A DNA stretch of 64,000 nt from Alphaproteobacteria bacterium. GTDB lineage: Bacteria > Pseudomonadota > Alphaproteobacteria > JAREAF01. Position numbers and translations under genes: made by a program. Of the stretch, positions 9,669 to 28,771 are shown in pieces (position 1 is the first letter of the stretch; each line of letters begins with the position of its first letter). The stretch is from the NCBI GenBank assembly GCA_035620695.1, contig DASPGI010000066.1, forward strand, positions 40,163 to 104,162. The letters are read 5' to 3'. A model generated the notes under the pieces. The model had not been told where the DNA came from, ran no database searches, and saw only the letters and a list, made by a program, of their open reading frames with translations.

Positions 9669-10772
9669 TCACGATGCCGGCGGCTTCTGTTGGTCCGCCA
9701 CCGGCCGCAACACATAGTCTCCGGGGCTCCATTCCCTCATCAAGGTGTAAAGAATGGCCAGAATCGTCGGCCCAAGAAAGATGCCGATGAAGCCGAAGGC
9801 GATAGCCCCGCCCAATATGCCGATGAGGATCAGCAGCAGAGGCAGCGCGCTGCCGCGCGAGATGAACATCGGCCTGATGACATTGTCGATATTCCCTACC
9901 AGGATGGCACTCCATGCGACCAGGAAAACGCCCCAGGCGATCTGGTCTGAGCGGAACAGCCAGATCGCGACCGGCAGCCAGACAATCACCGCCGCGCCCG
10001 GAATGATTCCGAGGAAACCCGTGGCGATGCCGAGCAGGAACGGCGCCGGCACCCCCGAAATCCAGTAGCCGAAAGCCGCGAGCGAGGCTTGCGCCAGCGC
10101 CGAGCCCATGACGCCGTAGACCACGCCCTTGAGCGTACCGTAGGCAACGGCCAGAAGACGCCGCGCCCGGTCTCCCGCCACGCGACTGAGGATGTCGGTC
10201 AGGCGATGCAAAGCGGCTTCGCCATCCCGATAGAAGAAGAAAGCGCAGACGATGCTGAGGGCAAGCTCCGCAATGCCGCCTCCCACCGCCGCGCCGATCT
10301 TCAACAACCGCTGGACCGCACCTCGCAGCAGTTGCTGCAGCTCCTCGGACTCGCTTCCTTCAGCGGCAAGCTCGCGCCAGCGTTGAACGAGCCTGTCTCC
10401 GACGAGCGGGATCCGCGCGAGGAAGTCAGGGGGCTCGACACCGCCCTCCTGAAGCGCCAGGCGCAGCCGTTCGCCCAAGGTCGCGACATTGTCCGCCATG
10501 GTCACGCCGACCAAAGCGACCGGGCCCAGCAGCACCAACACCAGCAGTAGCGTCATCAGCGTCGCCGCGAGCGTGCCACGCCCACCGAGATGTCTGCGGA
10601 ACCAGGAGAAAACCGGCCATGTGGCGATGGCAAGGATCGCGCCCCAAAGCAGAGCCGCCAGAAACGGCCGCACGATCACGAACGAGACCGCGCATAGAAG
10701 AAGGATGAAGATCAGCGCGAACGCGGTCGCGATGTAGGCGGTGCGTTGTTCGGGCCTCTGCGCCATATCCAC
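9669..10772 (-). CDS. AI-2E family transporter (PerM/UPF0118)
   Basis: 367 aa, 8 TM. The C-terminal conserved block NIDNVIRPMFISRGSALPLLLILIGILGG is typical of AI-2E/PerM permeases. Confidence 0.85.
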   Translation of the reverse strand: MDMAQRPEQRTAYIATAFALIFILLLCAVSFVIVRPFLAALLWGAILAIATWPVFSWFRRHLGGRGTLAATLMTLLLVLVLLGPVALVGVTMADNVATLGERLRLALQEGGVEPPDFLARIPLVGDRLVQRWRELAAEGSESEELQQLLRGAVQRLLKIGAAVGGGIAELALSIVCAFFFYRDGEAALHRLTDILSRVAGDRARRLLAVAYGTLKGVVYGVMGSALAQASLAAFGYWISGVPAPFLLGIATGFLGIIPGAAVIVWLPVAIWLFRSDQIAWGVFLVAWSAILVGNIDNVIRPMFISRGSALPLLLILIGILGGAIAFGFIGIFLGPTILAILYTLMREWSPGDYVLRPVADQQKPPAS

Positions 10773-10856: not shown

Positions 10857-11648
10857 CTACAAGCGATAATTCACCGTGAATCCCAAGAACAGTTGATTCT
10901 CATCGCCCCGATTATCGACGACCGGGCTATCGGCCGCGTCGTCGATCAACCGGGTGAAGCCGCCGAGGAGCGTGGCCGACCAATGTTCGGCGAACCGATA
11001 GTTGACATTGGCGCTGACGCCGACATCCTTGAAACCGGCATCCGCATCGAAGGTGTTGAGCCCGCTTCGGGCGGCATCGCTGGCGTTCACGCCGAAATAC
11101 TCCGACATATAGTCTTCACTCGCCCAGTTGCTGAACAGCTCGGCGCCAATGGAGAAAGGGCTGTCGGGCATTCTATTGAAGTAGGACAGGCGCGGCGTGA
11201 CGAGATAGCCGTTGTCGCTGGCGACATCGTAGCGCAGATCGAGAAGCGCCGCGAAATCGGCGTTGGCCTGCGGGAAGAAGTCCCAACCAAAGATGCCGCC
11301 CAAGAAAAGTCCGGCATCGACACTCCTCATGCGGTCGACGGCGTCGTCTTCGACATTGTTGCGCTCGGGTATGTACAACCCCGATACACCAGCTCGCAGA
11401 TGCGGATCGGCGACGAAATTGGACCGCAACGCCGGTCCGGCCAGTGTTACATAGGTGTCGGGGTGGTAGAGATCCTTGGCGGAAAAGAGCCAAGTCGGCA
11501 CGCCCTGATAGTCGTCCGAACCCTCATAGTCCGGCGCGGCGCCGACACCCAGCCCCACGGTGAAGTCAGTCGCGTTCGCCGGAGCAATTGCCGCGGAAAT
11601 GACAAATGTTGCGACAGTGCAAAGGAATCCCAGGCTCAGTTTTTTCAT
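10857..11648 (-). CDS. MipA/OmpV-family outer-membrane protein
   Basis: 263 aa. Signal peptide MKKLSLGFLCTVATFVISAAIAPANA, beta-rich sequence ending FLGFTVNYRL, in keeping with an MltA-interacting-protein family beta-barrel. Confidence 0.75.
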   Translation of the reverse strand: MKKLSLGFLCTVATFVISAAIAPANATDFTVGLGVGAAPDYEGSDDYQGVPTWLFSAKDLYHPDTYVTLAGPALRSNFVADPHLRAGVSGLYIPERNNVEDDAVDRMRSVDAGLFLGGIFGWDFFPQANADFAALLDLRYDVASDNGYLVTPRLSYFNRMPDSPFSIGAELFSNWASEDYMSEYFGVNASDAARSGLNTFDADAGFKDVGVSANVNYRFAEHWSATLLGGFTRLIDDAADSPVVDNRGDENQLFLGFTVNYRL

Positions 11649-11899
11649 CTGTTTGGATCTCCATTCGCTTGTCCTAATACAACGTGGGTTCGATTCTGGC
11701 CGTGGCGAAATTCATTGAGCTGCCACCGGTGCGCATTGATGTAAATCAAGACCGCATTCGCCGCCACCTTATCTTTGTGCCGAAGTGGCCTGCTCACGCC
11801 GCTCCCAACAAATATGGCGTCGTCGCCGCGATTGGTAGCAGCGCCATCGGCGGTGCGACTCGAAGGTCATGCGCGGCCGACAATCCGCGGATTTCTCCG

Positions 11900-12970
11900 T
11901 CACCGCAGGGGATCCGGAAGATTTTCGCGGATAAGTATGGAAAACAGCGGGCTCTTGCCAGCCCGATCGGCGGCCTCGTTGATCTGCGCGCGGTTTTGCA
12001 ACTCCTCGAACGGCAGGCGCGTGTCGGGCGAGCCGCGCGCATAGAGATATTCGGGTGTATGCCCGGTCAGCAGCAGCCTCCAGTCCCAGGGCAGGACGGC
12101 GCCCGCCGCAAGACCCGCAACGCGGATCTGGCTGGTGCAATTGGTCCAGAGGGTGTTGTAGAAGCGCGGCCTCTGCGCAAGCGCGTTGATCGTTCGCAAA
12201 TATTCGAGAAAGAGGCGGCGTGCATTTTCAGGGGGGGTGCGCAGCCGGAAAAGATGGACGCGCTCCTTGCGGAAGGTCGTTCGCAGCCGCAAGAGATCGC
12301 GCTCGTCACCGAGAATATAGATCAGCTCGTAGTTCCGGAAGGCGCCTTGAAGGGTCGAATATTCCTGGTCCCGGCGTCGCCGGATTTCGATCGACGCGAT
12401 GATTTGCTCGCCCGTATCGAAACCGAAGCTGACCATCAGATGCGCGATATGCGGACCGCCCCAATAGGAGGCGATCAGGTCCAGGCGGCTCAGCGCGGAG
12501 AGGGAATAGCTGCGCTCCTCCCAGCGTTCGAGGAACCGATCCGTTCCATTCCAGTCGAAATTGCGGATGTTGCGGATGGTGACGCGATCGCCCTCGATCG
12601 AGGCTTCGGCCATTCTCGCGACCTCCGGCGGCCAGTTGCCGGCATGGGAAGGCTCGATCAGCGCCCAGGCCACAGTGGCCAGCGCGGCGGCGACCCCTAG
12701 AGCGAGGATCGCCGGCCGCAACCGTCGAAGGAAGACGCCGGCAAGCGCCAGCAGCGCCAACATGGCTACTGCCAGGGCGGCGGGAAGCCGCGCCTGACCG
12801 GACAGCACCGGTGCATAGAGAAGCACAAGCTCTGTCCAACCGCCGACGGCAAGAATGGCCAGGACAAAGAGGCTCTTGGATAGGATGTGCACGGCCAGTC
12901 CGCCGGCTCTCTTGGGCTGCAAGGGAACGCTACCGGCGCGTGCCATGCGATTACCCAGGGTCCCTTTCAA
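11900..12970 (-). CDS. DUF4105-domain (Lnb-like) membrane/periplasmic protein
   Basis: 356 aa. N-terminal TM helices then a soluble domain (YWGGPHIAHLMVSFGF...). An internal start at 12946 is possible. It begins 8 bp after the upstream SYLF gene. Confidence 0.6.
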   Translation of the reverse strand: MKGTLGNRMARAGSVPLQPKRAGGLAVHILSKSLFVLAILAVGGWTELVLLYAPVLSGQARLPAALAVAMLALLALAGVFLRRLRPAILALGVAAALATVAWALIEPSHAGNWPPEVARMAEASIEGDRVTIRNIRNFDWNGTDRFLERWEERSYSLSALSRLDLIASYWGGPHIAHLMVSFGFDTGEQIIASIEIRRRRDQEYSTLQGAFRNYELIYILGDERDLLRLRTTFRKERVHLFRLRTPPENARRLFLEYLRTINALAQRPRFYNTLWTNCTSQIRVAGLAAGAVLPWDWRLLLTGHTPEYLYARGSPDTRLPFEELQNRAQINEAADRAGKSPLFSILIRENLPDPLR

Positions 12971-16019: not shown

Positions 16020-17144
16020 TCAGAAGGACAGCGCCAACGCCACGGAGACGCGTTTTTCCAAGGCGTCCTCCTCCAAATCAGCGGCGGGCGTGGCGAGCCC
16101 GCCGCCCATGCGCAAGGAAACGCCCGGACGAGGGGATTCTTCCGCCTGAACCACGAATTCGTGCGCTGATCCAATCGAGGAACGACTGGCGTAGAGGAGA
16201 TCGAGCCGCAAAGGCGCTCGCGGGCGAAGCGTCAGTCGCAGATCGGCCGACGCCCCCTCCTCCGCGAGGGCCAGAGGCTCGCCGGCACCGAGGTTGAGGG
16301 CCAAGGGCAGCGCGTCGCCGGCAACCTGGCCACGGGCTACCCGGTAGCGGACCGTCACAATGGGTGACCAGGGGGCCAAGTGGGCAAGGTCGTAACCCAG
16401 TTCGCCCTGGCCCCAATCGGCGGCCAGATCGGCCCCTTCGGTCGCCCGGTCGATCGGCCGGAAATAGCTCGCGCCGACAATCAGCGGGCCCGGCATCAGC
16501 CTGGCATCCAACCCGCCGAGTCTCAGATTGTCCTTGTCCTTGCCTTGGAGATGAAACAGCCGGAGCCGGCCCGGCCCGTGCTTCACCGTCATGGTCGCAC
16601 TGTCGAATTGAGCGGGCTGGCGCCGCATCCAGCAGTCGGCAGCGCAACGATCGGGGTCGGCGTCCCATTCGAGAAGGCCCGTCCCGTCATCGGCCATTTC
16701 GCGCCCGAAGGAGAGGCTTACCGCATCCTCTCCCAGCGCGCCGAGAAGCGCGCCGGAGGACCAGCCCGCATAGACCTGCTTCAGCCAGGCCATGCCGCGG
16801 CCATCGAACCGGATGTCCGAGGACTCTCCCTCCGCACCGGTCATCACCGCGCTCGCGGTCGACGCGGCCGCGAAGATGCCGCCGTAATATGGCGAGCGCG
16901 TTTCAAGGCGCGGCTGGAACAGACTGCCTGCACCCTCCTCAGCGGCGCTCAACGCCGCGCGCAGTTGGAGCCTGGCATCGCCGACCGCCTGAAGGTCCGG
17001 CACCGTCAGGTCGACACGCTTTTCGGTCACCTGTTCCGCACGTGCGGCAGGCCCGGCCAGGCAAAGCGGCGCCAAAAGTAAAGCGATCGAGGCAAGCTTT
17101 ATGCAAAGCTCGCGAAAATCCCTCCGAAGCGCCCCCATGGACAA
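16020..17144 (-). CDS. Hypothetical secreted protein, probably an outer-membrane beta-barrel
   Basis: 374 aa. Signal peptide (IALLLAPLCLAGPAARA), alternating amphipathic pattern, C-terminal ...VSVALALSF ending in an aromatic residue as in OMP beta-barrels. Confidence 0.55.
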   Translation of the reverse strand: MSMGALRRDFRELCIKLASIALLLAPLCLAGPAARAEQVTEKRVDLTVPDLQAVGDARLQLRAALSAAEEGAGSLFQPRLETRSPYYGGIFAAASTASAVMTGAEGESSDIRFDGRGMAWLKQVYAGWSSGALLGALGEDAVSLSFGREMADDGTGLLEWDADPDRCAADCWMRRQPAQFDSATMTVKHGPGRLRLFHLQGKDKDNLRLGGLDARLMPGPLIVGASYFRPIDRATEGADLAADWGQGELGYDLAHLAPWSPIVTVRYRVARGQVAGDALPLALNLGAGEPLALAEEGASADLRLTLRPRAPLRLDLLYASRSSIGSAHEFVVQAEESPRPGVSLRMGGGLATPAADLEEDALEKRVSVALALSF

Positions 17145-17250: not shown

Positions 17251-18840
17251 TCAAGGCTGTCCGGTCTTTGCTCCCAAGGGTGCCTCCATATTGGGAAGAG
17301 AGGTGCTTTCGGAATGCTTGTCTCCGGTTTGGTCGCCTGCTTCCGGGTTCACTCTCACGATCCCGATCCCAATGAGGCTGAACAGAAAGGAAATCAGCGG
17401 ATTCAAAAGGTTGAAGAAGCAGTAGATCAGATAGTTGGAAGCCGGGATACCCAGAGCCGCCGCCATATAGGCGCCGCAGCTGTTCCAGGGGATCAGCGGC
17501 GAGGTCACGGTGGCGGAATCGCCGACTACGCGCGACAGCAGGACCGGCGCCAAGCCCCGGCGCTTGAACTCCATCCGGAACATCCGTCCGGGCAGCATGA
17601 TGGCGATATACTGGTCGGAGGTCAGCAGGTTGGCGCCGATCGCGGTTCCAATCACCACGCCGACCAAGCCTGCGACCGATTTCGCCTTGTCGATGATCGG
17701 ATCGACCAGCCGATTCAACAGCCCCGCCTGCTCGACCACCGCTCCGAAGGCCAGGGCCGTCATGATCAGCCATACAGTCACCATCATGCTTGCCATGCCG
17801 CCGCGGCTCAACAACTGGTCCAAGGCCGGATCGCCCGTGCTTGATTGATAGCCGGTGGCCAGTGCGGACCAGGCGCCCTTCAAAAGCGCCAGTGACTGCG
17901 GAATGTCCGGAGCGTCGGCGAATTCAAGCACCTTGTCCGGTGATTGGACCACCGCCAAGACGCCGCCCAGCAGCGCGCCAGCGAAGATCGCCAGGAAGGG
18001 TGGCGTGCGCAGCATCGCCAGTACGAATACCGCCAGGAGCGGCAAAAAGGCCCAGAGCGTGATGTGGTGACGATCGCCGATCCGCGTCAGCTCGGCGGAG
18101 GCGTCGAAATCTCCCGGCGACCCGATCAGCGCAAAAAACACCAGCGCAAGCACCAGGGCCGGCACCGAGATGCGCAACGATTCCTTGATATGGCTGAAAA
18201 TCTCCGATCCCGCCGCGGCCACCGCAAGATTGGCGGTGTCTGATAGCGGCGAGGTCTTGTCGCCGAAATAGGCGCCCGAGATCACCGCCCCGGCGGTGAT
18301 CGCCAGCGAGAGCTCCATCGTCGCGGCGATGCCCATGAGGCCGATGCCGATCGTCCCCGCGACCGTCCAGGAACTGCCGATCGCGGTGGCGACCACGGCG
18401 CAGATCAGCGCGGCGCTGGCATAGAAATATTGCGGCGAAAGCAGCTGCAGCCCGTAATAGACCATGGCGAGGATGGTGCCGCTCATCGCCCAGGTTCCAA
18501 TCAGCGCACCGACGCCCAGAAGAATGAAGATGGCGGCCAAACCGCTCGACACGCCTTCAACCGCGCCGGCGCGAATGCTTGCCCAGGGCCTTCCATTCTT
18601 GAAAGAGATCAATGTTGCCAGCACGGCGGCAAACACGAGCGCGATCTGGTTGGGTCCTTGAGAGGCGTCCGCGCCGTAGAGATAAAAAGACAAGGCCAGA
18701 AGGACGATCAGTCCGCCGACCGGAATCAAGGCGTCGAGGAGAGATGGTCTGCGCGCGGGCTGAGCCGGTTCTTCCGTGGACCCGGGCAAGGTCGGATCAG
18801 TTGCCGCCATCACCGTCTCGGTCGCCCTTGCGGCATCCAA
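17251..18840 (-). CDS. NhaC-family Na+/H+ (or arginine/ornithine-type) antiporter
   Basis: 529 aa, about 12 TM, NhaC-family topology. It begins 30 bp after arcC on the same strand, so it is likely co-transcribed with the arc operon. Confidence 0.85.
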   Translation of the reverse strand: MDAARATETVMAATDPTLPGSTEEPAQPARRPSLLDALIPVGGLIVLLALSFYLYGADASQGPNQIALVFAAVLATLISFKNGRPWASIRAGAVEGVSSGLAAIFILLGVGALIGTWAMSGTILAMVYYGLQLLSPQYFYASAALICAVVATAIGSSWTVAGTIGIGLMGIAATMELSLAITAGAVISGAYFGDKTSPLSDTANLAVAAAGSEIFSHIKESLRISVPALVLALVFFALIGSPGDFDASAELTRIGDRHHITLWAFLPLLAVFVLAMLRTPPFLAIFAGALLGGVLAVVQSPDKVLEFADAPDIPQSLALLKGAWSALATGYQSSTGDPALDQLLSRGGMASMMVTVWLIMTALAFGAVVEQAGLLNRLVDPIIDKAKSVAGLVGVVIGTAIGANLLTSDQYIAIMLPGRMFRMEFKRRGLAPVLLSRVVGDSATVTSPLIPWNSCGAYMAAALGIPASNYLIYCFFNLLNPLISFLFSLIGIGIVRVNPEAGDQTGDKHSESTSLPNMEAPLGAKTGQP

Positions 18841-18870
18841 CCGGGTGTTCGCCCGATCCCGTCGGCTCGA

Positions 18871-19809
18871 TCAGCGGTGCCATGAAAGGCCCTTGCGGTC
18901 GGAGCTGACCAGCGTTCCTTTTTCGCCCGCCACTATGGCCGGAATGTCGGCCAGCGCACCAATCGCGGCGGTCTTGCCGGTGGCTTCTGCGAAGCGGCAG
19001 GCGGCGTCGACCTTGGGTCCCATCGAGCCGGCCGGGAACTGATAGTCCCGCATCGACGCCGGGCTCGCCCGATGAATGGCCTTGGCATCGGGCTTGCCCC
19101 AATTCACGAAGACGGCGGCGGCATCGGTCGCCATTATGAAAAGGTCGGCGGCCAGTTCGCGAGCGAGAAGCTCGCTCGCCAAGTCCTTGTCGATGACGGC
19201 CTCGACGCCGATCAACTTGCGGTTCGCGCTACGCTGATACATGGTCGGAATGCCGCCGCCGCCGGCCGCGATGACGATGGTGCCCCTCTCCAACAACCAC
19301 CGGATGGGCCGGATCTCGAAGATGCGCTTGGGCTCAGGAGAAGGCACGACCCGTCGCCACTTGTCACCGTCCGCCTTGAAGATCCAACCCTTTTCCTTGG
19401 CGATGCGGTCGGCGGTCGACTTATCGTAAACCGGGCCAACGAACTTGGTCGGATTGGCGAAGCCCGGATCGTCGGGATCGATCTCGATCATGGTCAGGAG
19501 CGTGGCGAAGGGCACCTCAAACGGCAGCAGGTTGCCGAGCTCCTGCTCGATCATGTAGCCGATCATCCCTTCGGTTTCCGCGCCCAGGACGTCGAGCGGG
19601 TAGGCCTCGTCCGGCTTGTAGGCCGCGCCCTGAAGGGCAAGGAGCCCGACCTGGGGGCCGTTGCCGTGACTGATGACGAGCTGATGGTCGCGCGCGACAG
19701 GCGCCAGCGCCTCGGCCGCGATCTTCACATTCCGGCGTTGAGCGTCGGCGGTCATCGGCTCGCCACGTTTCAGAAGCGCGTTGCCTCCCAGAGCGACGAC
19801 GATGCGCAT
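18871..19809 (-). CDS. arcC: Carbamate kinase
   Basis: 312 aa. [17 protein letters not shown]... amino-acid kinase fold. Last gene of the arcDABC set. Confidence 0.95.
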
Positions 19810-19814
19810 GGCCC

Positions 19815-20819
19815 TTAATCTCCCAAGGTGGCGACCAGCAGCGCCTTGATCGTGTGCATCCGATTCTCGGCCTGCTCGAAGGCGATGTTCCGCTCTGACT
19901 CAAACACCTCGTTGGTGACCTCAAGCCCGTTCGTCATGCCGTAAGTTTCGGCGATCTGACGACCCACGACCGTCTCTGTATCGTGGAAAGCGGGCAAGCA
20001 GTGCATAAACCTCACTTGCGGGTTTCCGCTTGCCTCGATCAGGGCGTCATTCACCTGATAGGGCTTCAAGAGGTCGATGCGCTCCTTCCAAACCTCCTTC
20101 GGCTCGCCCATGGAAACCCAGACGTCCGTGTGAATGAAGTCCACCCCCTTCACCGCGGCCTTGGGGTCTTCGGTGATGGTGAGCTTGGCGCCGTGCTTAC
20201 GCTCCAAATCCTGGGCGATCTTCCTGTATTCCTGGGTTGGCCAGAGTTTCTTTGGGCCAGCGATGCGCACATCCATTCCCATCAGGCATCCGGCGATCAT
20301 CAGCGAATGGCCCATATTCGAGCGGGTATCGCCGACATAGGCGTATTTGATCTCGTGGATCGGCCGGTCGCTGTGCTCGCGCATGGTCATGATGTCCGCA
20401 AGCATCTGGGTCGGGTGATACTCGTCGGTTAGCCCGTTATAGACCGGCACGCCGGCATATTCCGCGAGCTGCTGCACGCCCTCCTGAGAAGCGCCGCGAT
20501 ACTCGATCGCGTCATACATGCGCCCCAGCACGCGCGCGGTGTCCTTGAAGGATTCTTTGTGTCCGATTTGCGAGCCCGCCGGATCGAGATAGGTGACATG
20601 CGCGCCCTGGTCATGACACGCGACCTCGAAGGCACAACGGGTGCGGGTCGAGGTCTTCTCGAAGATCAGGCAGATCTCCTTTCCTTCGAGATGCCGCTGC
20701 TCGGTCCTCGAGTACTTCGCCCGCTTGAGATCGCGCGCGAGATCCAGGAGGTAGCGGAACTCCCGTTGGGTGTAGTCCTGCACGGTCAAGAGCGAACGGT
20801 TGCGCAGATTGAAGCTCAC
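19815..20819 (-). CDS. arcB: Ornithine carbamoyltransferase, catabolic
   Basis: 334 aa. STRTR carbamoyl-phosphate motif and HCLP ornithine motif. Called arcB from operon context. Confidence 0.93.
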
Positions 20820-20847
20820 GGGTTCCCTCCGTCGACATTGATGGCAT

Positions 20848-22077
20848 TCAATAGGCTGGGTCGCGGGAGACAGGGCAGGTCATGCAATGGCCACCGCCAC
20901 GCCCGCGGCCAAGCTCGGCTCCGCGTACGGTGATCACTTCGATGCCCGCCTTTCTCAGAAGAGTGTTGGTGTGAATGTTCCGGTCGTAGGCGACGACGAC
21001 GCCGGGCTCTAACGCGACGACGTTGTTTCCGTCGTCCCACTGCTCGCGTTGTGCGTCGTAGGCGTCTCCTCCGGTCTCGACGACGTGGAGCTTTTTTAAC
21101 CCCAGCGCCTCCGGAACCACCTCCAAAAGCGGCTTCGTCTCCTTGCGTATCTCGATGCCGACCGGCTCCTTGCCGGGATAGGCGCTGTAGCAGGCGATCT
21201 GATCGACCACCTCGCGGAAGACGGTGACGATATCGCGATCACAGAAACTGAAGACCGTATCGAGATGCATCGCCGCCCGGCTCTTGGGCATCAGGCATGC
21301 GATCACGCGCGAGGCCGCCTTGTTCCGGAACAGCTCGCGACAGACCTGCATCACCGCGTGCCGGCTGGTCCTCTCGCCCATCCCGATCAGCACCAGCCCC
21401 TTCCCGACCGGCATGACGTCGCCGCCTTCCATCGTGGCATTGGCGAAGTCTTCGTCCGAATCACCCCACCAGATCTTGAAATCGCCCTGTTTAAACAGCG
21501 GGTGAAACTTGTAGACGGCGCGCTGGAGCAGGGTTTCCGGCTTGCGCGCCGGCCAGAACATCGGATTGCACGTAACCCCGCCATAGATCCAGCAAGAGGG
21601 ATCGCGCTGAAACAGGGTATTGGGAATCGGCGGGATCACGAAATCGGCGCCACCGAACGCCTCGCTCATCATCTTCTTCATGCCGTTTTCAGGGAGGTCG
21701 TCGACGGCGATGCCGCCGATCAGATGTTCGGCCAGTTGCTTGGCCGGCATCTCGTCGAGCCAAGGACGCATCGCCACCGCAGCGCCGACGCCAACATGAT
21801 TCGACGTGATACGGCGGTCGAGGATGAAGGCTCGTCCCTCGGGCTCTTCCAGAACCGCGGTCAGCAGATCGTGCAGGTCCAGGACCTCGGTGCCTCGTTC
21901 CTGCATCTTCAGCGCGAAGTCGTAGTGGTCCTTCTGCGCCTCGTGCACCCACAGCACATCGTCAAATAGCAGGGTATGGCAGTTTCCGGGCGTGAGGCGC
22001 TGATGCGCCAAACCGGGCCGGCACACCATCACCGCATTCAGCTTGCCGACCTCAGAGTGAACCCCGAGCTTGAACAT
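20848..22077 (-). CDS. arcA: Arginine deiminase
   Basis: Start taken at [13 protein letters not shown] (ATG at 22077) behind a GGAGAGGAAG RBS. The listed ORF start at 22149 would overlap arcD and is probably an over-extension. It contains ADI family blocks, including the catalytic Cys region GGGHCMTCP. Confidence 0.93.
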
Positions 22078-22121
22078 CTTCCTCTCCCGTAATCCGTGAT
22101 CCGAAGAAGCTTCCACTCCGT

Positions 22122-23603
22122 TCAAAGCGGGCTGATTTGGCCGGTCCATAAGAGCCAGCCTGCGTAGACGCCGAGCGCGACGATTGCTGCGGCGATCAGC
22201 GCCTCGATCCCTGTGAAGGCTGCCTGCCCCGTCTCCCTACGCGCCTTGACATAGACGAGGATGCCCGGAACGAAGAGCACCGCGCACATCAACAGGTAAG
22301 AGAGCCCTGCGGCATAGACGAGCCAGAGTCCATAAAGGGTGGCGACCGCGCCTACGATCAAATCGCGGGTCCGCCCGCGCTCCGCCGTTCCGTAGCCCTC
22401 GCCCGTCAGCGCCAGCTTCAGCGCATAGGCGCCGGAGAAGACGTAAGGAGGCAGGATGGCCACCGAAGCGATGAAGTAGAAGAACTGATAGGCGCTCTTC
22501 GAGAAGAACGAGAGCACCAGGAACAGCTGGATAAGGATATTGGTGACCCAGAGCGAGTTGACCGGCGAGCCGTTGGCGTTCTCCGCGGCGAACCATTTGG
22601 GGAAGGTGCCGTCGCGGCCGCAGATATAGGGAATTTCCGCACAGAGAAGCGTCCAGGCCAAGAATGCGCCCCCGACCGAAACGATCAGACCGATATTGAT
22701 GACGGCCGCACCCCAGGGCCCGACCACCGAGGCAAGGACCCCGGCCATCGAAGGAACCTTCTGGTCGGCAAGCTCGGGCTGGCTCAACACCCCGGTGGCC
22801 AGAAGCGACACGAGCACATAGATGCCGAGAGCTCCGAGGAAGCCGAGCACGGTCGCCCGCCCGACATCTCGCCGATTGGCCGCGCGGGCGGAGTAGACGC
22901 TTGCACCCTCGATGCCGATGAAGACCCACAAGGTCACCAGCATCGTGCTCTTGACCTGGTCGAGCACCGAGCCAAGCCCGGCATTCTCAGCGCCGCCTGC
23001 CCGGCCCCAGAAATCGAAAGTGAACTGGTCCCAGTTGAAGGCGATGATCGCCACCAGGATGAAGAGCATGATCGGCGCCAGCTTGGCGACGGTCGTGATC
23101 AGGTTGACGAACGCCGCCTGCCGTATGCCCTTCAGCACCAGGGCATGGATCAGCCAAAGGCAGATCGACGCCCCGATGATGGACGGCAGGTTGTTGCCGT
23201 CCCCGAACATCGGAGCGAAGTAGGACAGCGCCGAGAAGATCGCGACCGCATAGGCGACGTTGCCGAGGAAGGCGCTGATCCAGTATCCCCAGGCGCTGTT
23301 GAATCCGATGAAATTGCCGAAGCCCGCCTTGGCATAGGCGTAAGGGCCGGCGTCGAGGCCAGGCTTGCGCATGGCCAGACCCTGATAGACGAAGGCGAGC
23401 ATCAACATGCCGATGCCGGTCACGATCCAGCCGATCACGATCGCGCCAGGACCAGCACTTCTCGACATGTCGGACGGCAGATTGAAGACGCCGCCGCCGA
23501 TCATCGAACCGACGACGAGTGCGACCAAGGGCAGGAGCGTCAATTTTGGCGATACGCCGGCTGCCCTGCTCTCCTGTCCGGCCGTTGCAACCTGAGTGGT
23601 CAT
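22122..23603 (-). CDS. arcD: Arginine/ornithine antiporter, APC superfamily
   Basis: 493 aa, 12-13 TM, with an APC-type N-terminus ([18 protein letters not shown]). First gene of the arc operon. Confidence 0.9.
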
Positions 23604-23668: not shown

Positions 23669-23682
23669 TTGATCTGGATCAA
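23669..23682. promoter_or_regulatory. Candidate FNR/ANR-type box TTGATCTGGATCAA upstream of arcD
   Basis: Perfect TTGAT-N4-ATCAA palindrome centred about 72 bp upstream of the arcD start codon, in the 340-bp arcD/porin divergent intergenic region. Confidence 0.55.
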
Positions 23683-23942
23683 AGGGTGCCCGTGATTGCT
23701 CTTCAAGTTTTTGTGATCTTCCGAACTAGAAGTGACTGCACAAGAGGTAGCCTTAAGTTCGCGGCCAATCACCAGCTTGTCTGTAACTCGCTCGCCACAC
23801 GGTATGATTGATCTCGAATCTCATTTTGGTTTCGCGTTGACCCTCTATCCTCCGCGGTTCTACTCCGGTGCCGTGGGCCAAGACTCGGAAGGCTGACAGG
23901 GGGATTGACTCCTCCAGCCTTGATCTTGGAGGGGGCCATAAG

Positions 23943-25064
23943 ATGAAAAGAGTTCTGTTGGGAACGACGGCATTGATGGCCGCCAGCGCGATCGGCATGG
24001 GCCAAGCCCATGCGAAGTTCGATGTGACGATCAATGGCGTCTGGAACACCGCTTACGGCTTCGTCGACCAGGATGACAGCACCGGCGAGTCTGGCGACAA
24101 TAGGCACAACCAAGCCATCAACGAAGACTTCGAGGTGTTTTTCCAGATAACCCAGACCTTGGATAACGGCGTTACGGTCGGCGGCCGAGTCGAGCTGGAA
24201 GGCTTTCAGTCCGACAGTGACCAAATTGATGAGCGCTGGATCTATTTCCGCGGCGGCTTCGGCGAGGTCCGCATCGGCGACGAGGACGACGCCCGCAAGC
24301 TGATGTCTTACACCTCTCCGAACCCGACGAACTTCCTTTTCGGCGTGAATTCGCCCTCCTTCACCTTCCAGAGCTTGGCCTCCGGCCAGGTCGTGTCGAC
24401 CAACTCGACCACTCCGTTCGACGGCGACTCCTCGAAGATCATCTACTTCACGCCCTCCTTCAGCGGTTTCCAGCTCGCCGTCTCTTACGCGCCAGATGCC
24501 AGCCAGGACCGCACCGGTTTCGGCACCGGCAGCACCCAGGATTTCGTGTCGAGTTATGTCTCGATCGGAGCAAACTATTCCGGTCAGTTCGACGGCTTTA
24601 CTATCGGGGCTGGCGGCGGATATTCCCAGGCTCACGCCGAAACCAACGGTCCTGGTCCTTTCGGCAATGCCATCAACGACGACAGCCCCTATACTTGGGC
24701 GGCCGGCGCGAATATCGGCTTCGGCGGGTTCACCGTGGGCGGATCGATCGCGATGGGCGATGGGCTGGATTCAACCGGCTACAACGGCTATTCGGTGACC
24801 GAAGCCACCGTCTATGATATCGGCGTGACCTACGCGTTCGATGCGGTCAATGTCGGCATCGCCTGGAGCCACGGCGAATACGAGGACGTAAACGACGGCG
24901 AGAATGACGAGCTCGACTTCATCACCCTCGGCTCGGGTTACACATTGGGCGAGGGGGTGTTACTCGCCGCCTTCGTCGGATGGTTCGACTATGAGGATGG
25001 AGGCCCGACGAGCAACGACAATACCGGCTGGCAGGCCGGCGTCGGCGCCGGGCTCGACTTCTGA
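23943..25064 (+). CDS. Alphaproteobacterial porin (Omp2/RopA-like)
   Basis: Start at MKRVLLGTTALMAASAIGMGQAHA (signal peptide, GGAGGGGG RBS) rather than the listed 23868. Glycine-rich beta-strand pattern with a C-terminal ...GVGAGLDF. Confidence 0.8.
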   Translation: MKRVLLGTTALMAASAIGMGQAHAKFDVTINGVWNTAYGFVDQDDSTGESGDNRHNQAINEDFEVFFQITQTLDNGVTVGGRVELEGFQSDSDQIDERWIYFRGGFGEVRIGDEDDARKLMSYTSPNPTNFLFGVNSPSFTFQSLASGQVVSTNSTTPFDGDSSKIIYFTPSFSGFQLAVSYAPDASQDRTGFGTGSTQDFVSSYVSIGANYSGQFDGFTIGAGGGYSQAHAETNGPGPFGNAINDDSPYTWAAGANIGFGGFTVGGSIAMGDGLDSTGYNGYSVTEATVYDIGVTYAFDAVNVGIAWSHGEYEDVNDGENDELDFITLGSGYTLGEGVLLAAFVGWFDYEDGGPTSNDNTGWQAGVGAGLDF

Positions 25065-25162: not shown

Positions 25163-26629
25163 ATGAGCGTCCAGCAATCTTGCGCACCGCTTGGCCGTCG
25201 GGAACTCCTCGTGGCGCTTCTCGCCGCGCCACCGCTGCTTTTCGCCTATCGCGCGCTGGCGCAGACAGGAGCTCTGCAAGACGAAGACGAAGCGGAAATA
25301 CCCGATGACCCGTTACTTGCCACCGCCCTCAGCCATTGGACCGGCGATCTTGACGGGATGGTCGAACGGGGCATGCTCCGCATCGCGATTCCGTTTGGAT
25401 TGACGACCTATTTCCTCGACGGTCCCGATCAACGGGGCTTGACCTACGAGTTCGCGCTGAAATTCGAGGAGTTCCTGAAGAAGCGCCTGGGCAAACAGGC
25501 GGCCAGGTTGACACTGGTTGTCATACCGACCAGCCGTGACCGGCTCTTTCCGATGGTGACGGAAGGTCTGGTCGACATCGCTGCCGGTTCGCTCACCATC
25601 ACGCCCGATCGGCTCGCGATCGTCGATTTCAGCGATCCTTTTGGCACAAATGTGCGTGAGGTGCTGGTCACAGGTCCCGCTGCGCCCGATATTCGCACAG
25701 CTGAGGATCTGCTAGGGACGCCCATCCATATCCGGCGGTCCAGCAGCTTCTACGAGCATCTGCGGGACCTGAATGATCGCCGGATCGCCGAAGGCAAGGA
25801 GCCGTTCCTGGTCGTGGAGGCGGATGAGAAACTGACGACGGACGATTTCTTCGAGATGGTGTCCGCCGGAATGTTTCCAGCGACGATCGGCGACGATTTC
25901 GCGGCCAACTTTTTCGTTCAGGTCTTCGACAATCTCCGTATCCATGACGATCTCGTGCTTGCGGATAATCAGTCGCTCGGCTGGGCGTTCCGGAAGAACA
26001 GCCCGCAATTGAAGGAGGCGGTAAACGCCTTTGTCGATACGGCCCGCAAGGGAACACAGTTGGGCAACATCCTGCTTGCAAAGTATCTCAAGAATACGAA
26101 ATGGGTCGAGAACGCGCTGGCCCCGGGCGAGCGGGAGAAGTTCAAGGCGACAGTCGGCCTCATCAAGACCTATGCCGATCGCTACGAGTTCGATTGGCTG
26201 ATGATCGGGGCACAGGCGTACCAGGAGTCCCGGCTCGATCAGAGCAAACGCAGCCCGGTCGGCGCGATCGGCATCATGCAGGTAATGCCGCAGACCGCGC
26301 GCGATCCCAATGTGGGAATTCCCGACATCCACATCACCGAGCCGAATGTTCATGCCGGGGTCAAATATCTGCGCTTCGTGCGCGACCAATATTTTAGCGA
26401 TCCCGAACTGACGGAGCTGGATCAGACCCTGTTTTCTTTCGCCGCCTACAACGCGGGTCCCGGCAACATTCGCAAAGCTCGCCGCCATGCCGGGAAGCTC
26501 GGCCTCGATCCGAATGTCTGGCTCGACAATGTCGAGATTGCCGCGGGCAAGGTGATCAGCCGCGAACCGGTCGTTTACGTGCGCAACATCTACAAGTATT
26601 ACATCGCGTACAAGTCGATCGGCGGATAG
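25163..26629 (+). CDS. mltF: Membrane-bound lytic murein transglycosylase F-like (PBP3 domain + SLT domain)
   Basis: 488 aa. N-terminal family-3 solute-binding-like domain plus a C-terminal lytic transglycosylase domain with the catalytic block AYQESRLDQSKRSPVGAIGIMQVMPQTA. Confidence 0.85.
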   Translation: MSVQQSCAPLGRRELLVALLAAPPLLFAYRALAQTGALQDEDEAEIPDDPLLATALSHWTGDLDGMVERGMLRIAIPFGLTTYFLDGPDQRGLTYEFALKFEEFLKKRLGKQAARLTLVVIPTSRDRLFPMVTEGLVDIAAGSLTITPDRLAIVDFSDPFGTNVREVLVTGPAAPDIRTAEDLLGTPIHIRRSSSFYEHLRDLNDRRIAEGKEPFLVVEADEKLTTDDFFEMVSAGMFPATIGDDFAANFFVQVFDNLRIHDDLVLADNQSLGWAFRKNSPQLKEAVNAFVDTARKGTQLGNILLAKYLKNTKWVENALAPGEREKFKATVGLIKTYADRYEFDWLMIGAQAYQESRLDQSKRSPVGAIGIMQVMPQTARDPNVGIPDIHITEPNVHAGVKYLRFVRDQYFSDPELTELDQTLFSFAAYNAGPGNIRKARRHAGKLGLDPNVWLDNVEIAAGKVISREPVVYVRNIYKYYIAYKSIGG

Positions 26630-27358: not shown

Positions 27359-28771
27359 TTAAGAAAGGGGCACCTCGATTTCGCAGCGCAAGCCGTCCTT
27401 GCGCCACTCCATTTCGAGGGTACCTCCCAACTGCTGACAGACGGCCCCTTCAATGATGGTCATGCCGAAGCCCTTTTTTCTCGGCGGCTGGGCCTCAGCG
27501 CAACCGCTTTCCGTCCACCGGAACAGCAGTCGGTCGCCCGGCATCCCCCACCAGCGCAGCTCGATACGGCCGGACGGCTGGTGGATTGCGCCATGCTTGA
27601 CGGCGTTGGTCGACAGCTCGTGCACCACCATGGCGAGCGACTGGGCCAGCTGCGGGGAGACCGAAAGAGAGGGGCCATCGATCGCCACGCGGACATTCTC
27701 GCCTCCCAGATAAGGAGCAAGCTCGTCCTGGACGATACGGCGCAGATCGGCACCTTCCCAGCGCGAGGTCGACAGCAAGGTGTGCGCACGAGACAGGGCC
27801 GAGATGCGGCCGTCGACCGCCTCCTTGAACTCCGGTATTGAATCGGCCTGGGTCAGATGCACCAGCGCCTGGATCACCGCAAGCATGTTCTTCGCCCGGT
27901 GGTCCACCTCGCTGGCAAGCAGGCGCAGCCGTTCCTCCGACGCCTTGCGCTCGGTGATGTCCACCAGCATGTTGACCGCCCCGACCACGGCGCCCGAGCA
28001 ATCGTGCAGGAGTGTCGGATAGGGCGCAAAGGTAACGCGCGTGCCGTCCGGACGCTCCACGACGGCTTCGGCGCCTCTGATCGGGCGGCGCTGGTTGAGC
28101 GTCTGGGCCATGGGGCAGTGATCGTGCGGCATCGGCCTGCCATCGGGATAGAACAGCCGCCACGATCCGCACCAGGTCGCGGTTCCGATCTCAGGTCGAC
28201 ACCCCCAAAGCTCGACGGCGGCTTCGTTGTAGAAGGTGATGGAACCGGCCGCATCCGTGGTGTAGATGGCGGCGGGCAGTCCTTGAAGCAGCTCACGCAG
28301 CCGCTGTTCGCTTTCCTTGACCCTCTCTTCTGCAAGCCTGCGGCGAGTGATGTCCTGAAAGCAGTTCACCGCGCCGGCGAGCTCTCCCGTCTCCGAGAAA
28401 AGCGGCCGGACATTGAGCAGAACCGAGATGCGTGTCCTATCCGGGCGCTCGATCGTGAGCTCTCGATCGACAGCCGGAATTCCGGTCCGCAATACTTCCG
28501 CCATCGGCGTTTCGTCGAGCGAGAGCGGCACGCCGTCCGGCGTGTAGGCGCGCAACGCTCCGCAATAACGCTGCCGAGCCTCGCCGATCTGCGGCGAGCG
28601 GCCCCAAAGCATCGCGGCGCGCTCGTTGTAGCGGATCAGCGCCCCGTCCCGGTCGCAGATGCACAAGCCGATCGGCAGCGCATCGAAGAGGTGTTCGCCC
28701 CAAAGCGGGAGGGACCTTGGCTGGGCCGAGACGAATGGAACGACCTTTTCCGCCGCGGTCGGCTCGCTCAT
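27359..28771 (-). CDS. Cytoplasmic PAS-PAS sensor histidine kinase, HWE/HisKA_2 family
   Basis: 470 aa. Two PAS-like repeats, an H-box HRAKNMLAVIQAL (HisKA_2) and an HWE-type ATPase region (HELSTNAVKHGA ... RWWG ... E). No TM segments. Confidence 0.85.
   Translation of the reverse strand: MSEPTAAEKVVPFVSAQPRSLPLWGEHLFDALPIGLCICDRDGALIRYNERAAMLWGRSPQIGEARQRYCGALRAYTPDGVPLSLDETPMAEVLRTGIPAVDRELTIERPDRTRISVLLNVRPLFSETGELAGAVNCFQDITRRRLAEERVKESEQRLRELLQGLPAAIYTTDAAGSITFYNEAAVELWGCRPEIGTATWCGSWRLFYPDGRPMPHDHCPMAQTLNQRRPIRGAEAVVERPDGTRVTFAPYPTLLHDCSGAVVGAVNMLVDITERKASEERLRLLASEVDHRAKNMLAVIQALVHLTQADSIPEFKEAVDGRISALSRAHTLLSTSRWEGADLRRIVQDELAPYLGGENVRVAIDGPSLSVSPQLAQSLAMVVHELSTNAVKHGAIHQPSGRIELRWWGMPGDRLLFRWTESGCAEAQPPRKKGFGMTIIEGAVCQQLGGTLEMEWRKDGLRCEIEVPLS

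Follow-up and report, generated by a model that had tools for sequence, protein, structure and literature searches.

What does an NhaC-family transporter do at the end of an arginine deiminase (ADI) operon that already encodes an exchanger of its own? The question is raised by a 64,000-nucleotide stretch of the genome of an Alphaproteobacteria bacterium (GenBank assembly GCA_035620695.1, contig DASPGI010000066.1, positions 40,163 to 104,162), referred to below as the window, in which the genes arcD, arcA, arcB and arcC are followed by a fifth gene. This NhaC-family gene, located after arcC, was given the working name N. Textbooks present the ADI pathway as a source of anaerobic ATP and of pH tolerance, and ArcD or ArcE is generally assumed to account for its transport step. 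The arcDABC operon of the window is itself the textbook ADI operon; what appears to be new here is the existence of ADI clusters with a conserved third type of accessory transporter. On sequence grounds, N is a member of a distinct, widespread bacterial NhaC-family clade linked to arcA. As for its function, we tentatively regard N as a putative cation/proton antiporter (Na+, K+ or possibly NH4+ against H+) that would offset the pH and charge effects of deimination; this is a serious possibility, if somewhat short of an even chance.

All five genes are minus-strand open reading frames (ORFs). The arcD gene (22122..23603) encodes an APC-family arginine/ornithine antiporter of 493 amino acids (aa), which scores 636 bits on TIGR03810 against a cutoff of 591 and matches PF13520 with an E-value of 7e-68. 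Arginine deiminase is encoded by arcA (20848..22077, 409 aa) from the ATG at 22077, which is preceded by the ribosome-binding site GGGAGAGGAAG; the protein matches PF02274 (E 1e-126) and NF002381 (570 bits vs 414), and its score on TIGR01078, 485.7 bits, is marginally under 489.1. The arcB gene (19815..20819) has a GTG start codon with GGAGGG ahead of it and encodes an ornithine carbamoyltransferase of 334 aa (551 bits on NF002470 vs a cutoff of 545, with PF00185 and PF02729 matches), the catabolic role of which we infer from context. Carbamate kinase (312 aa) is encoded by arcC (18871..19809) and scores 496 bits vs 361 on NF009008 and 393 bits vs 358 on TIGR00746. By profile, the cluster thus holds ArcA, ArcB and ArcC encoded adjoining arcA, and an APC-family ArcD. 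The preliminary description of this locus had claimed a complete arcDABC cluster, and the claim stands: the ORFs lie as described, ArcD, ArcB and ArcC score above their profile cutoffs, and ArcA does so on NF002381.

The N gene (17251..18810, minus strand) encodes a transporter of 519 aa from the ATG at 18810, with a PF03553 match (E 1e-40) and 348.7 bits on TIGR00931, the cutoff of which is 370. The intergenic gaps read from the sequence are 44 bp between arcD and arcA, 28 bp between arcA and arcB, and 5 bp between arcB and arcC. The distance from arcC to N is 30 bp if translation begins at the TTG at 18840, giving a protein of 529 aa, or 60 bp if it begins at the ATG. A database protein of 519 aa from a metagenome-assembled genome (MAG) labelled "Alphaproteobacteria bacterium" is 100% identical, over its full length, to the ATG-start translation. 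No terminator, promoter-like site or stable hairpin was predicted in the arcC–N gap, and the RNA structure of the junction is not unusual (z-score −0.7). Upstream of N in the window, neither an FNR box nor a sigma-70-like site nor a structure was found that would indicate a promoter of its own; a promoter within arcC could still drive N. The earlier proposal that N belongs to the same transcript therefore holds up well: given the shared strand, the gap of 30–60 bp without a predicted terminator and a similar layout in the relatives annotated or inspected, with gaps of 1–92 bp, the five genes are very probably co-transcribed. Two RefSeq-annotated relatives have arcC–N gaps of 43 bp and 1 bp, the first on plasmid p4 of Azospirillum brasilense Sp7, where the order is arcD-A-B-C-N-porin and N is AMK58_RS28175, the second in Sinorhizobium sp. 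C101.

The link between N and the arc genes extends well beyond the window. Starting from an alignment of 20 homologues, we surveyed the best 80 of 594 relatives among 600 matches listed, on contigs of one genome per species, which samples the N clade rather than the NhaC family at large; three annotated replicons from a plasmid collection were added, giving 83 loci. Arc proteins were located by tblastn and by clustering of heuristic GC3-weighted ORF calls. The flanks examined were 10 kb, and "without arcB or arcC" below means none within that distance. A complete arcABC set lies beside N in 25 loci, and arc genes cut by the contig end in three; 37 loci have arcA without arcB or arcC, three have a glutaminase gene in place of arc genes, and 15 have neither. 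Altogether, arc genes adjoin N in 65 of the 83 loci, nearly always on the same strand and immediately adjacent, a frequency that excludes chance adjacency. The hosts belong to Alpha-, Beta- and Gammaproteobacteria, "delta" MAGs, Actinobacteria and others. The gene orders arcD-A-B-C-N (the window type), N-arcD-A-B-C, X-arcA-B-C-N and arcD-arcA-N were observed, the gene X upstream of arcA being of the DcuC-family ArcE type (PF03606, 373 bits in locus L025). In one MAG locus (L049, 6412-9097), arcD and arcA upstream of N are broken into several frames, which can be explained either by pseudogenes or by assembly or sequencing frameshifts.

N accompanies a dedicated exchanger, either ArcD or ArcE, and hardly ever takes its place. 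Among the 25 loci with complete arcABC and N, 14 have a full APC-family ArcD, two an ArcD cut by the contig end, eight a DcuC-family ArcE and one neither (L083). The latter locus and an arcA–N locus (L053) are the only two of approximately 62 evaluable arc-linked loci without ArcD or ArcE nearby. The arcABC-N clusters of Rhodobacterales and Pseudovibrio were considered as cases in which N might be the sole transporter; this was rejected, as the gene upstream of arcA encodes a DcuC-family ArcE. N is therefore unlikely to be an arginine importer, since otherwise more lineages should have shed ArcD or ArcE, as Halobacterium did.

The 37 loci in which arcA is followed by N without arcB or arcC bear on the step of the pathway to which N is tied. 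An ArcD-like gene is present in 34 of them. The species with these modules include Paraburkholderia monticola, Polymorphobacter arshaanensis and Aeromonas popoffii. With arcB and arcC absent within the flanks, such a module forms no ornithine; the N clade is tied to the deiminase step and not to arcBC or ornithine formation. In 16 of the 37 loci, from several proteobacterial classes, genes of an Mrp-type cation/H+ antiporter (mrpE, F, G, B, C, D) are adjacent and co-directional; an RND pump gene is found in 15 of these 16 (all but L042) and an MFP gene in 13. The Mrp-linked loci are L030 (7223-20273), L066 (1655-11455), L033, L035, L037, L041-L043, L048, L050, L051, L056, L063, L064, L068 and L079. 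Two of them were inspected closely, and a tight single array was seen in both: in Polymorphobacter arshaanensis (L030) the order is arcD-arcA-N-MFP-RND-x-mrpE-F-G-B-C-D, with overlaps or gaps of 0–92 bp, while L066, from an Aestuariivirga MAG, has the mrp genes leading directly into arcD-arcA-N, spaced by 12–31 bp. The recurrent neighbours of the deiminase-only modules are genes for a LuxR-type response regulator, phospholipase A1, a GntP-like permease, MarC, RND/MFP and Mrp proteins; no citrulline-metabolising gene recurs within the 10-kb flanks. We found no description of the deiminase-only/Mrp arrangement in the open-access literature. These modules fused to Mrp operons lie outside the window and are more surprising than the operon of the window itself.

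A comparison of the ArcD proteins of deiminase-only modules with those of complete pathways revealed 16 group-specific substitutions, several of which presumably fall in substrate-lining helices, by analogy with AdiC. The substitutions would fit, without proving it, a changed counter-substrate, the ArcD-like protein itself exchanging arginine for citrulline.

Three loci without arc genes have N immediately followed by a glutaminase gene (PF04960): L028 (1286-3900), L052 (10025-12620) and L076 (7010-9670), found in the distant taxa of a Lysobacterales MAG, Deefgea chitinilytica and a cyanobacterial MAG. Alignment of 64 arc-linked N proteins gave 82 invariant positions, and the N proteins of L028 and L052, which are nested in the deiminase-linked clade, retain 82 of 82. 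This points to a substrate common to the arc and glutaminase contexts.

Arginine deiminase and glutaminase have two things in common: both release ammonia, and both lower the charge by one unit from substrate to product (Arg+ to neutral citrulline, neutral Gln to Glu−). An exchange of substrate for such a product would leave a cation/proton imbalance. In the mechanism that we propose, the five genes of the window would form one transcription unit, probably started at an FNR-type promoter upstream of arcD and encoding the classical ADI pathway, in which ArcD takes up external arginine in exchange for ornithine from the cell while ArcA, ArcB and ArcC convert arginine to ornithine, 2 NH3, CO2 and ATP; N would correct the disturbance of cytoplasmic pH and charge caused by ammonia release from a cationic amino acid. 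The antiporter assignment draws on the presence of N in addition to ArcD or ArcE, on its tracking of the deiminase and not of arcBC, on the residues kept in the glutaminase context and on the fusion to Mrp operons. It also draws on the family, namely the PF03553 match and a TIGR00931 score near the threshold, the orthologue of Aeromonas popoffii being above it (375 vs 370), and on the precedent of nhaC in tyrosine decarboxylase operons. A role of N as a pH/Na+ homeostasis partner had been raised in the preliminary description as one of two options; it gains support from the recurrent Mrp operon fusion and the glutaminase pairing and remains unproven.

Several observations weigh against an antiporter. 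Membership in the NhaC family does not predict ion antiport, as the arginine/ornithine exchanger of Halobacterium salinarum scores 366 bits on the NhaC model, and transporters inside catabolic operons usually carry metabolites of the pathway. The AlphaFold model of N (pLDDT 80, pTM 0.79) has its best Foldseek match in 9a59_A, which is a modelled and not an experimental structure of Bacillus subtilis MleN (E 2e-24, TM 0.69, 29% identity); MleN, the closest structural match, is a malate/lactate exchanger coupled to Na+/H+. The next matches are TRAP SiaQM, INDY, NaS1, ArsB and AbgT (E 1e-8 to 1e-3). Antiporters of the NhaA/NapA type were not matched, the TM score of NapA against the N model being only 0.15, and a sequence search found no solved structure matching N. 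The predicted fold is that of an elevator-type metabolite carrier of the IT superfamily. Additionally, the N clade alone has WNSCGAY (residues 442-448), a putative hairpin-tip motif that would suit an organic substrate peculiar to the clade, and the arc-linked clade has Gly in place of Glu430, which all other NhaC references examined retain. As for the gene contexts, the pairing with glutaminase is based on three loci, and the Mrp genes might be there as part of a general stress island rather than because a substrate is shared.

Many of the same observations speak for the main rival reading, which we consider possible and yet doubtful: N would carry citrulline, or neutral amide and ureido amino acids such as citrulline and glutamine, possibly with a coupling to Na+ or H+ like that of MleN. 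N would then be a functional analogue of ArcE/PTP of lactic acid bacteria, permitting the overflow and re-uptake of citrulline where the cluster is complete and its exit where only the deiminase is encoded. N follows arcA, the gene of the citrulline-making enzyme, even where arcB and arcC are missing, and precisely these modules need an exit for citrulline. The NhaC family holds a proven metabolite exchanger in H. salinarum ArcD, and the match to MleN, the elevator fold, the clade-specific motif and the general habit of operon-embedded transporters all fit this reading; glutamine and citrulline are chemically alike, so that one binding site could serve both contexts. There are precedents as well: ArcD1 of Lactococcus lactis moves citrulline poorly and ArcE moves it well, and in Lactobacillus sakei PTP, the second transporter of the arc operon, is needed for citrulline re-uptake (PMC5300872). 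However, eight loci pair N with ArcE, which in Streptococcus pneumoniae already moves citrulline efficiently (PMC5300872). If N exported citrulline alone, the ArcD-like protein of deiminase-only modules, an obligate exchanger, would be left without a counter-substrate. Citrulline transport also leaves the recurrent fusion to Mrp operons without a specific explanation, and the lack of a recurring citrulline-metabolising gene near the deiminase-only modules counts against it.

The other option of the preliminary description, that N is a second arginine/ornithine exchanger like H. salinarum ArcD, either redundant with ArcD or with a different affinity or pH optimum, is quite unlikely. Its starting point was correct: on pNRC200 of H. 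salinarum, arcA-arcC-argF are followed by an NhaC-family arcD, the only transporter of that arc cluster and its recorded exchanger. N matches NF052307, the model of NhaC-type ArcD, over its whole length with an E-value of 2e-91, the two loci with neither ArcD nor ArcE within 8–10 kb would suit an exchanger, and paralogous exchangers in one arc cluster are known from L. lactis (ArcD1 and ArcD2). The quantitative comparison points the other way. The NF052307 score of N, 307 bits, is far below the cutoff of 650, while the Halobacterium protein reaches 799. A profile of the N clade was built from 82 N proteins and five NhaC references were scored on it; H. salinarum ArcD is the lowest, with 329 bits vs 365–440 for the NhaC proteins of Bacillus thuringiensis, Enterococcus faecalis, Haloferax and an Escherichia coli plasmid. 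It is 34% identical to the N protein of the window and has other residues at 32 of the 82 positions that do not vary among arc-linked N proteins. In a neighbour-joining distance tree that included five outgroups, it falls beside Haloferax NhaC and not within the N clade. Orthology of the two proteins was therefore rejected. Moreover, N virtually never replaces ArcD or ArcE, is kept in the 37 modules in which no ornithine is made, and also pairs with glutaminase. The NhaC equivalog model TIGR00931 leaves the substrate open, since N (348.7 bits), the proven amino-acid exchanger H. salinarum ArcD (365.9) and the A. popoffii orthologue (375.3) all lie close to its cutoff; PF03553 is matched by N with 140 bits (gathering score 23) over profile positions 1-303 of 303, and no match to PF03606, the DcuC/ArcE family, was found in N. 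That N is simply a housekeeping NhaC antiporter that happens to stand beside arcC, with no link to the ADI pathway, is very improbable. The 15 loci with neither arc nor glutaminase genes nearby agree with it, as does the lack of conservation, among relatives, of an FNR box ahead of the cluster; yet arc genes adjoin N in 65 of 83 species-level loci from several phyla and in at least four gene orders, and in the neighbour-joining tree the members without arc genes are either basal or placed inside arc-linked clades, a pattern that points to secondary loss.

A broader variant of the antiporter reading may also be mentioned, although we think it unlikely. The ArcD-like protein, ArcA and N might together constitute an arginine-run module of ion and pH homeostasis, which would move charge and protons rather than make ATP. 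N would then act either as a cation/H+ antiporter or as an exchanger that lets Na+ or NH4+ out together with the product. Such a module would explain the Mrp/RND fusion seen in many proteobacteria, the dispensability of arcB and arcC and the replacement of the deiminase by glutaminase; if it exists, arcDABC-N of the window would be an ATP-yielding version that keeps the accessory part.

As to regulation, a perfect FNR/ANR/FixK-type palindrome, TTGATCCAGATCAA, is located at 23669..23682 and ends 66 bp upstream of the arcD ATG. The 64-kb window contains two perfect FNR-type matches, against 0.008 expected from base composition. By analogy with the arcDABC operon of Pseudomonas aeruginosa, TTGATCCAGATCAA is a likely site of anaerobic or microaerobic control of the operon. 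Among relatives, a box at a comparable position was found in L013 and L021 only, and the idea of an FNR box as a clade-wide regulator was rejected; directly before N, no FNR-type box was found in any locus surveyed. The second perfect box, TTGATGTAAATCAA, lies at 11736-11749 between a MipA-like gene (10857-11648) and a gene with an Lnb_N domain (11900-12970), which suggests another oxygen-regulated promoter.

The preliminary description had also proposed a comparison of base composition as a test for horizontal acquisition, and this gave no signal. The GC content of the five-gene block is 0.622 vs 0.636 ± 0.015 for equal-size windows; being within one standard deviation, it shows no compositional sign of a recent acquisition. 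No mobile-element genes were detected among the flanking ORFs of the window that were scanned. Relatives of N are found on plasmids in Azospirillum and Sinorhizobium, and beside an IS3 transposase gene in Aeromonas.

The neighbours of the operon in the window are varied. A Porin_4-family outer-membrane porin (23868..25064, plus strand; PF13609, E 7e-46) is encoded divergently from arcD. Porin homologues are located directly after N in L001, L004, L017, L065 and L082 (A. brasilense Sp7 plasmid p4) and nearby in L016; the porin may belong to the module as an outer-membrane channel, possibly with a role in arginine uptake. Farther on this side are an MltF-like lytic transglycosylase gene (SBP_bac_3 + SLT; 25163-26629, plus strand) and a PAS/HWE histidine kinase gene (27359-28771, minus strand), for neither of which a link to the arc genes was established. 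On the other side, 106 bp downstream of N, an ORF of 374 aa (16020-17144, minus strand) encodes a protein with a signal-peptide-like N-terminus; no Pfam or NCBIfam match was found for it, it is not kept beside N in other loci, and no terminator is evident between the two genes. An AI-2E/UPF0118-family transporter gene (9669-10772, minus strand) lies 6.5 kb downstream of N, and another is found near the Sinorhizobium cluster (L083, 13628-14767). Members of this family have been reported as Na+(Li+)/H+ antiporters (PMC5379678); their presence near both clusters may be a coincidence. In L088 (1809-4431) and in Serratia/Yersinia plasmid hits (H26-H28, H31), other NhaC-family genes on plasmids of enterobacteria overlap or abut genes for PLP-dependent (pyridoxal-phosphate-dependent) aminotransferases or MalY/PatB, which fits many "NhaC" proteins being amino-acid-related carriers.

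A third transporter type thus stands beside arcA in at least 60 species, almost always on top of ArcD or ArcE. This means that a part of ADI physiology has gone unnoticed, be it the balancing of pH and charge, the handling of ammonium or the movement of citrulline. Once known, the substrate of N would allow the annotation to be corrected in hundreds of genomes and would explain the deiminase-only modules fused to Mrp. Culturable hosts are at hand in A. brasilense Sp7, Paraburkholderia, Pseudovibrio and A. popoffii. In the open-access literature we found no description of an NhaC-family gene in bacterial arc clusters, of NhaC in connection with citrulline, or of ADI in connection with Mrp.

Among known systems, the arcDABC operon of P. 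aeruginosa, which is regulated through an FNR/ANR-type site, has the same four genes in the same order. The window shares its tight spacing and the FNR/ANR-type box upstream of arcD, and differs in the NhaC-family fifth gene after arcC; to our knowledge, the described P. aeruginosa operon has no such gene. Wimmer and colleagues are said to have described H. salinarum ArcD in 2008 as an arginine/ornithine exchanger of the NhaC family. Like N, it matches PF03553, has a similar length and is encoded at the end of its arc cluster; it is, however, the sole transporter there, whereas the N of the window is accompanied by an APC-family ArcD. The NhaC-type ArcD of H. salinarum is recorded as the exchanger of the ADI pathway, and a survey of 124 arc clusters by Noens and Lolkema lists only ArcD and ArcE for bacteria and mentions NhaC for haloarchaea alone (PMC5300872). 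ArcE/PTP, a DcuC-family exchanger of arginine, ornithine and citrulline, is an additional or alternative transporter of arc clusters and a possible functional analogue of N. It belongs to PF03606, unlike N, and the two proteins occur together in eight loci. A few arc clusters of Lactobacillales carry both ArcD and ArcE, the second transporter handling citrulline (PMC5300872).

The tyrS-tyrDC-tyrP-nhaC operons of lactic acid bacteria combine an APC-family exchanger with nhaC, and their genes are co-transcribed and induced by the substrate (PMC6351943). Like N, nhaC of these tdc operons of Enterococcus and Lactobacillus is the last gene of an operon for amino-acid catabolism in which an APC-family precursor/product antiporter is also encoded, and its function is unproven; the operons differ from that of the window in having a decarboxylase instead of a deiminase and in belonging to a different phylum. 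An NhaC protein of E. faecalis encoded outside any tdc cluster is 33% identical to N. Finally, MleN, the malate-2H+/Na+-lactate antiporter, shares with N the NhaC family and is its best structural match, whereas its substrates are carboxylates and there is no orthology between the two at the sequence level. MleN couples the exchange of a precursor for its product to the movement of Na+ and H+.

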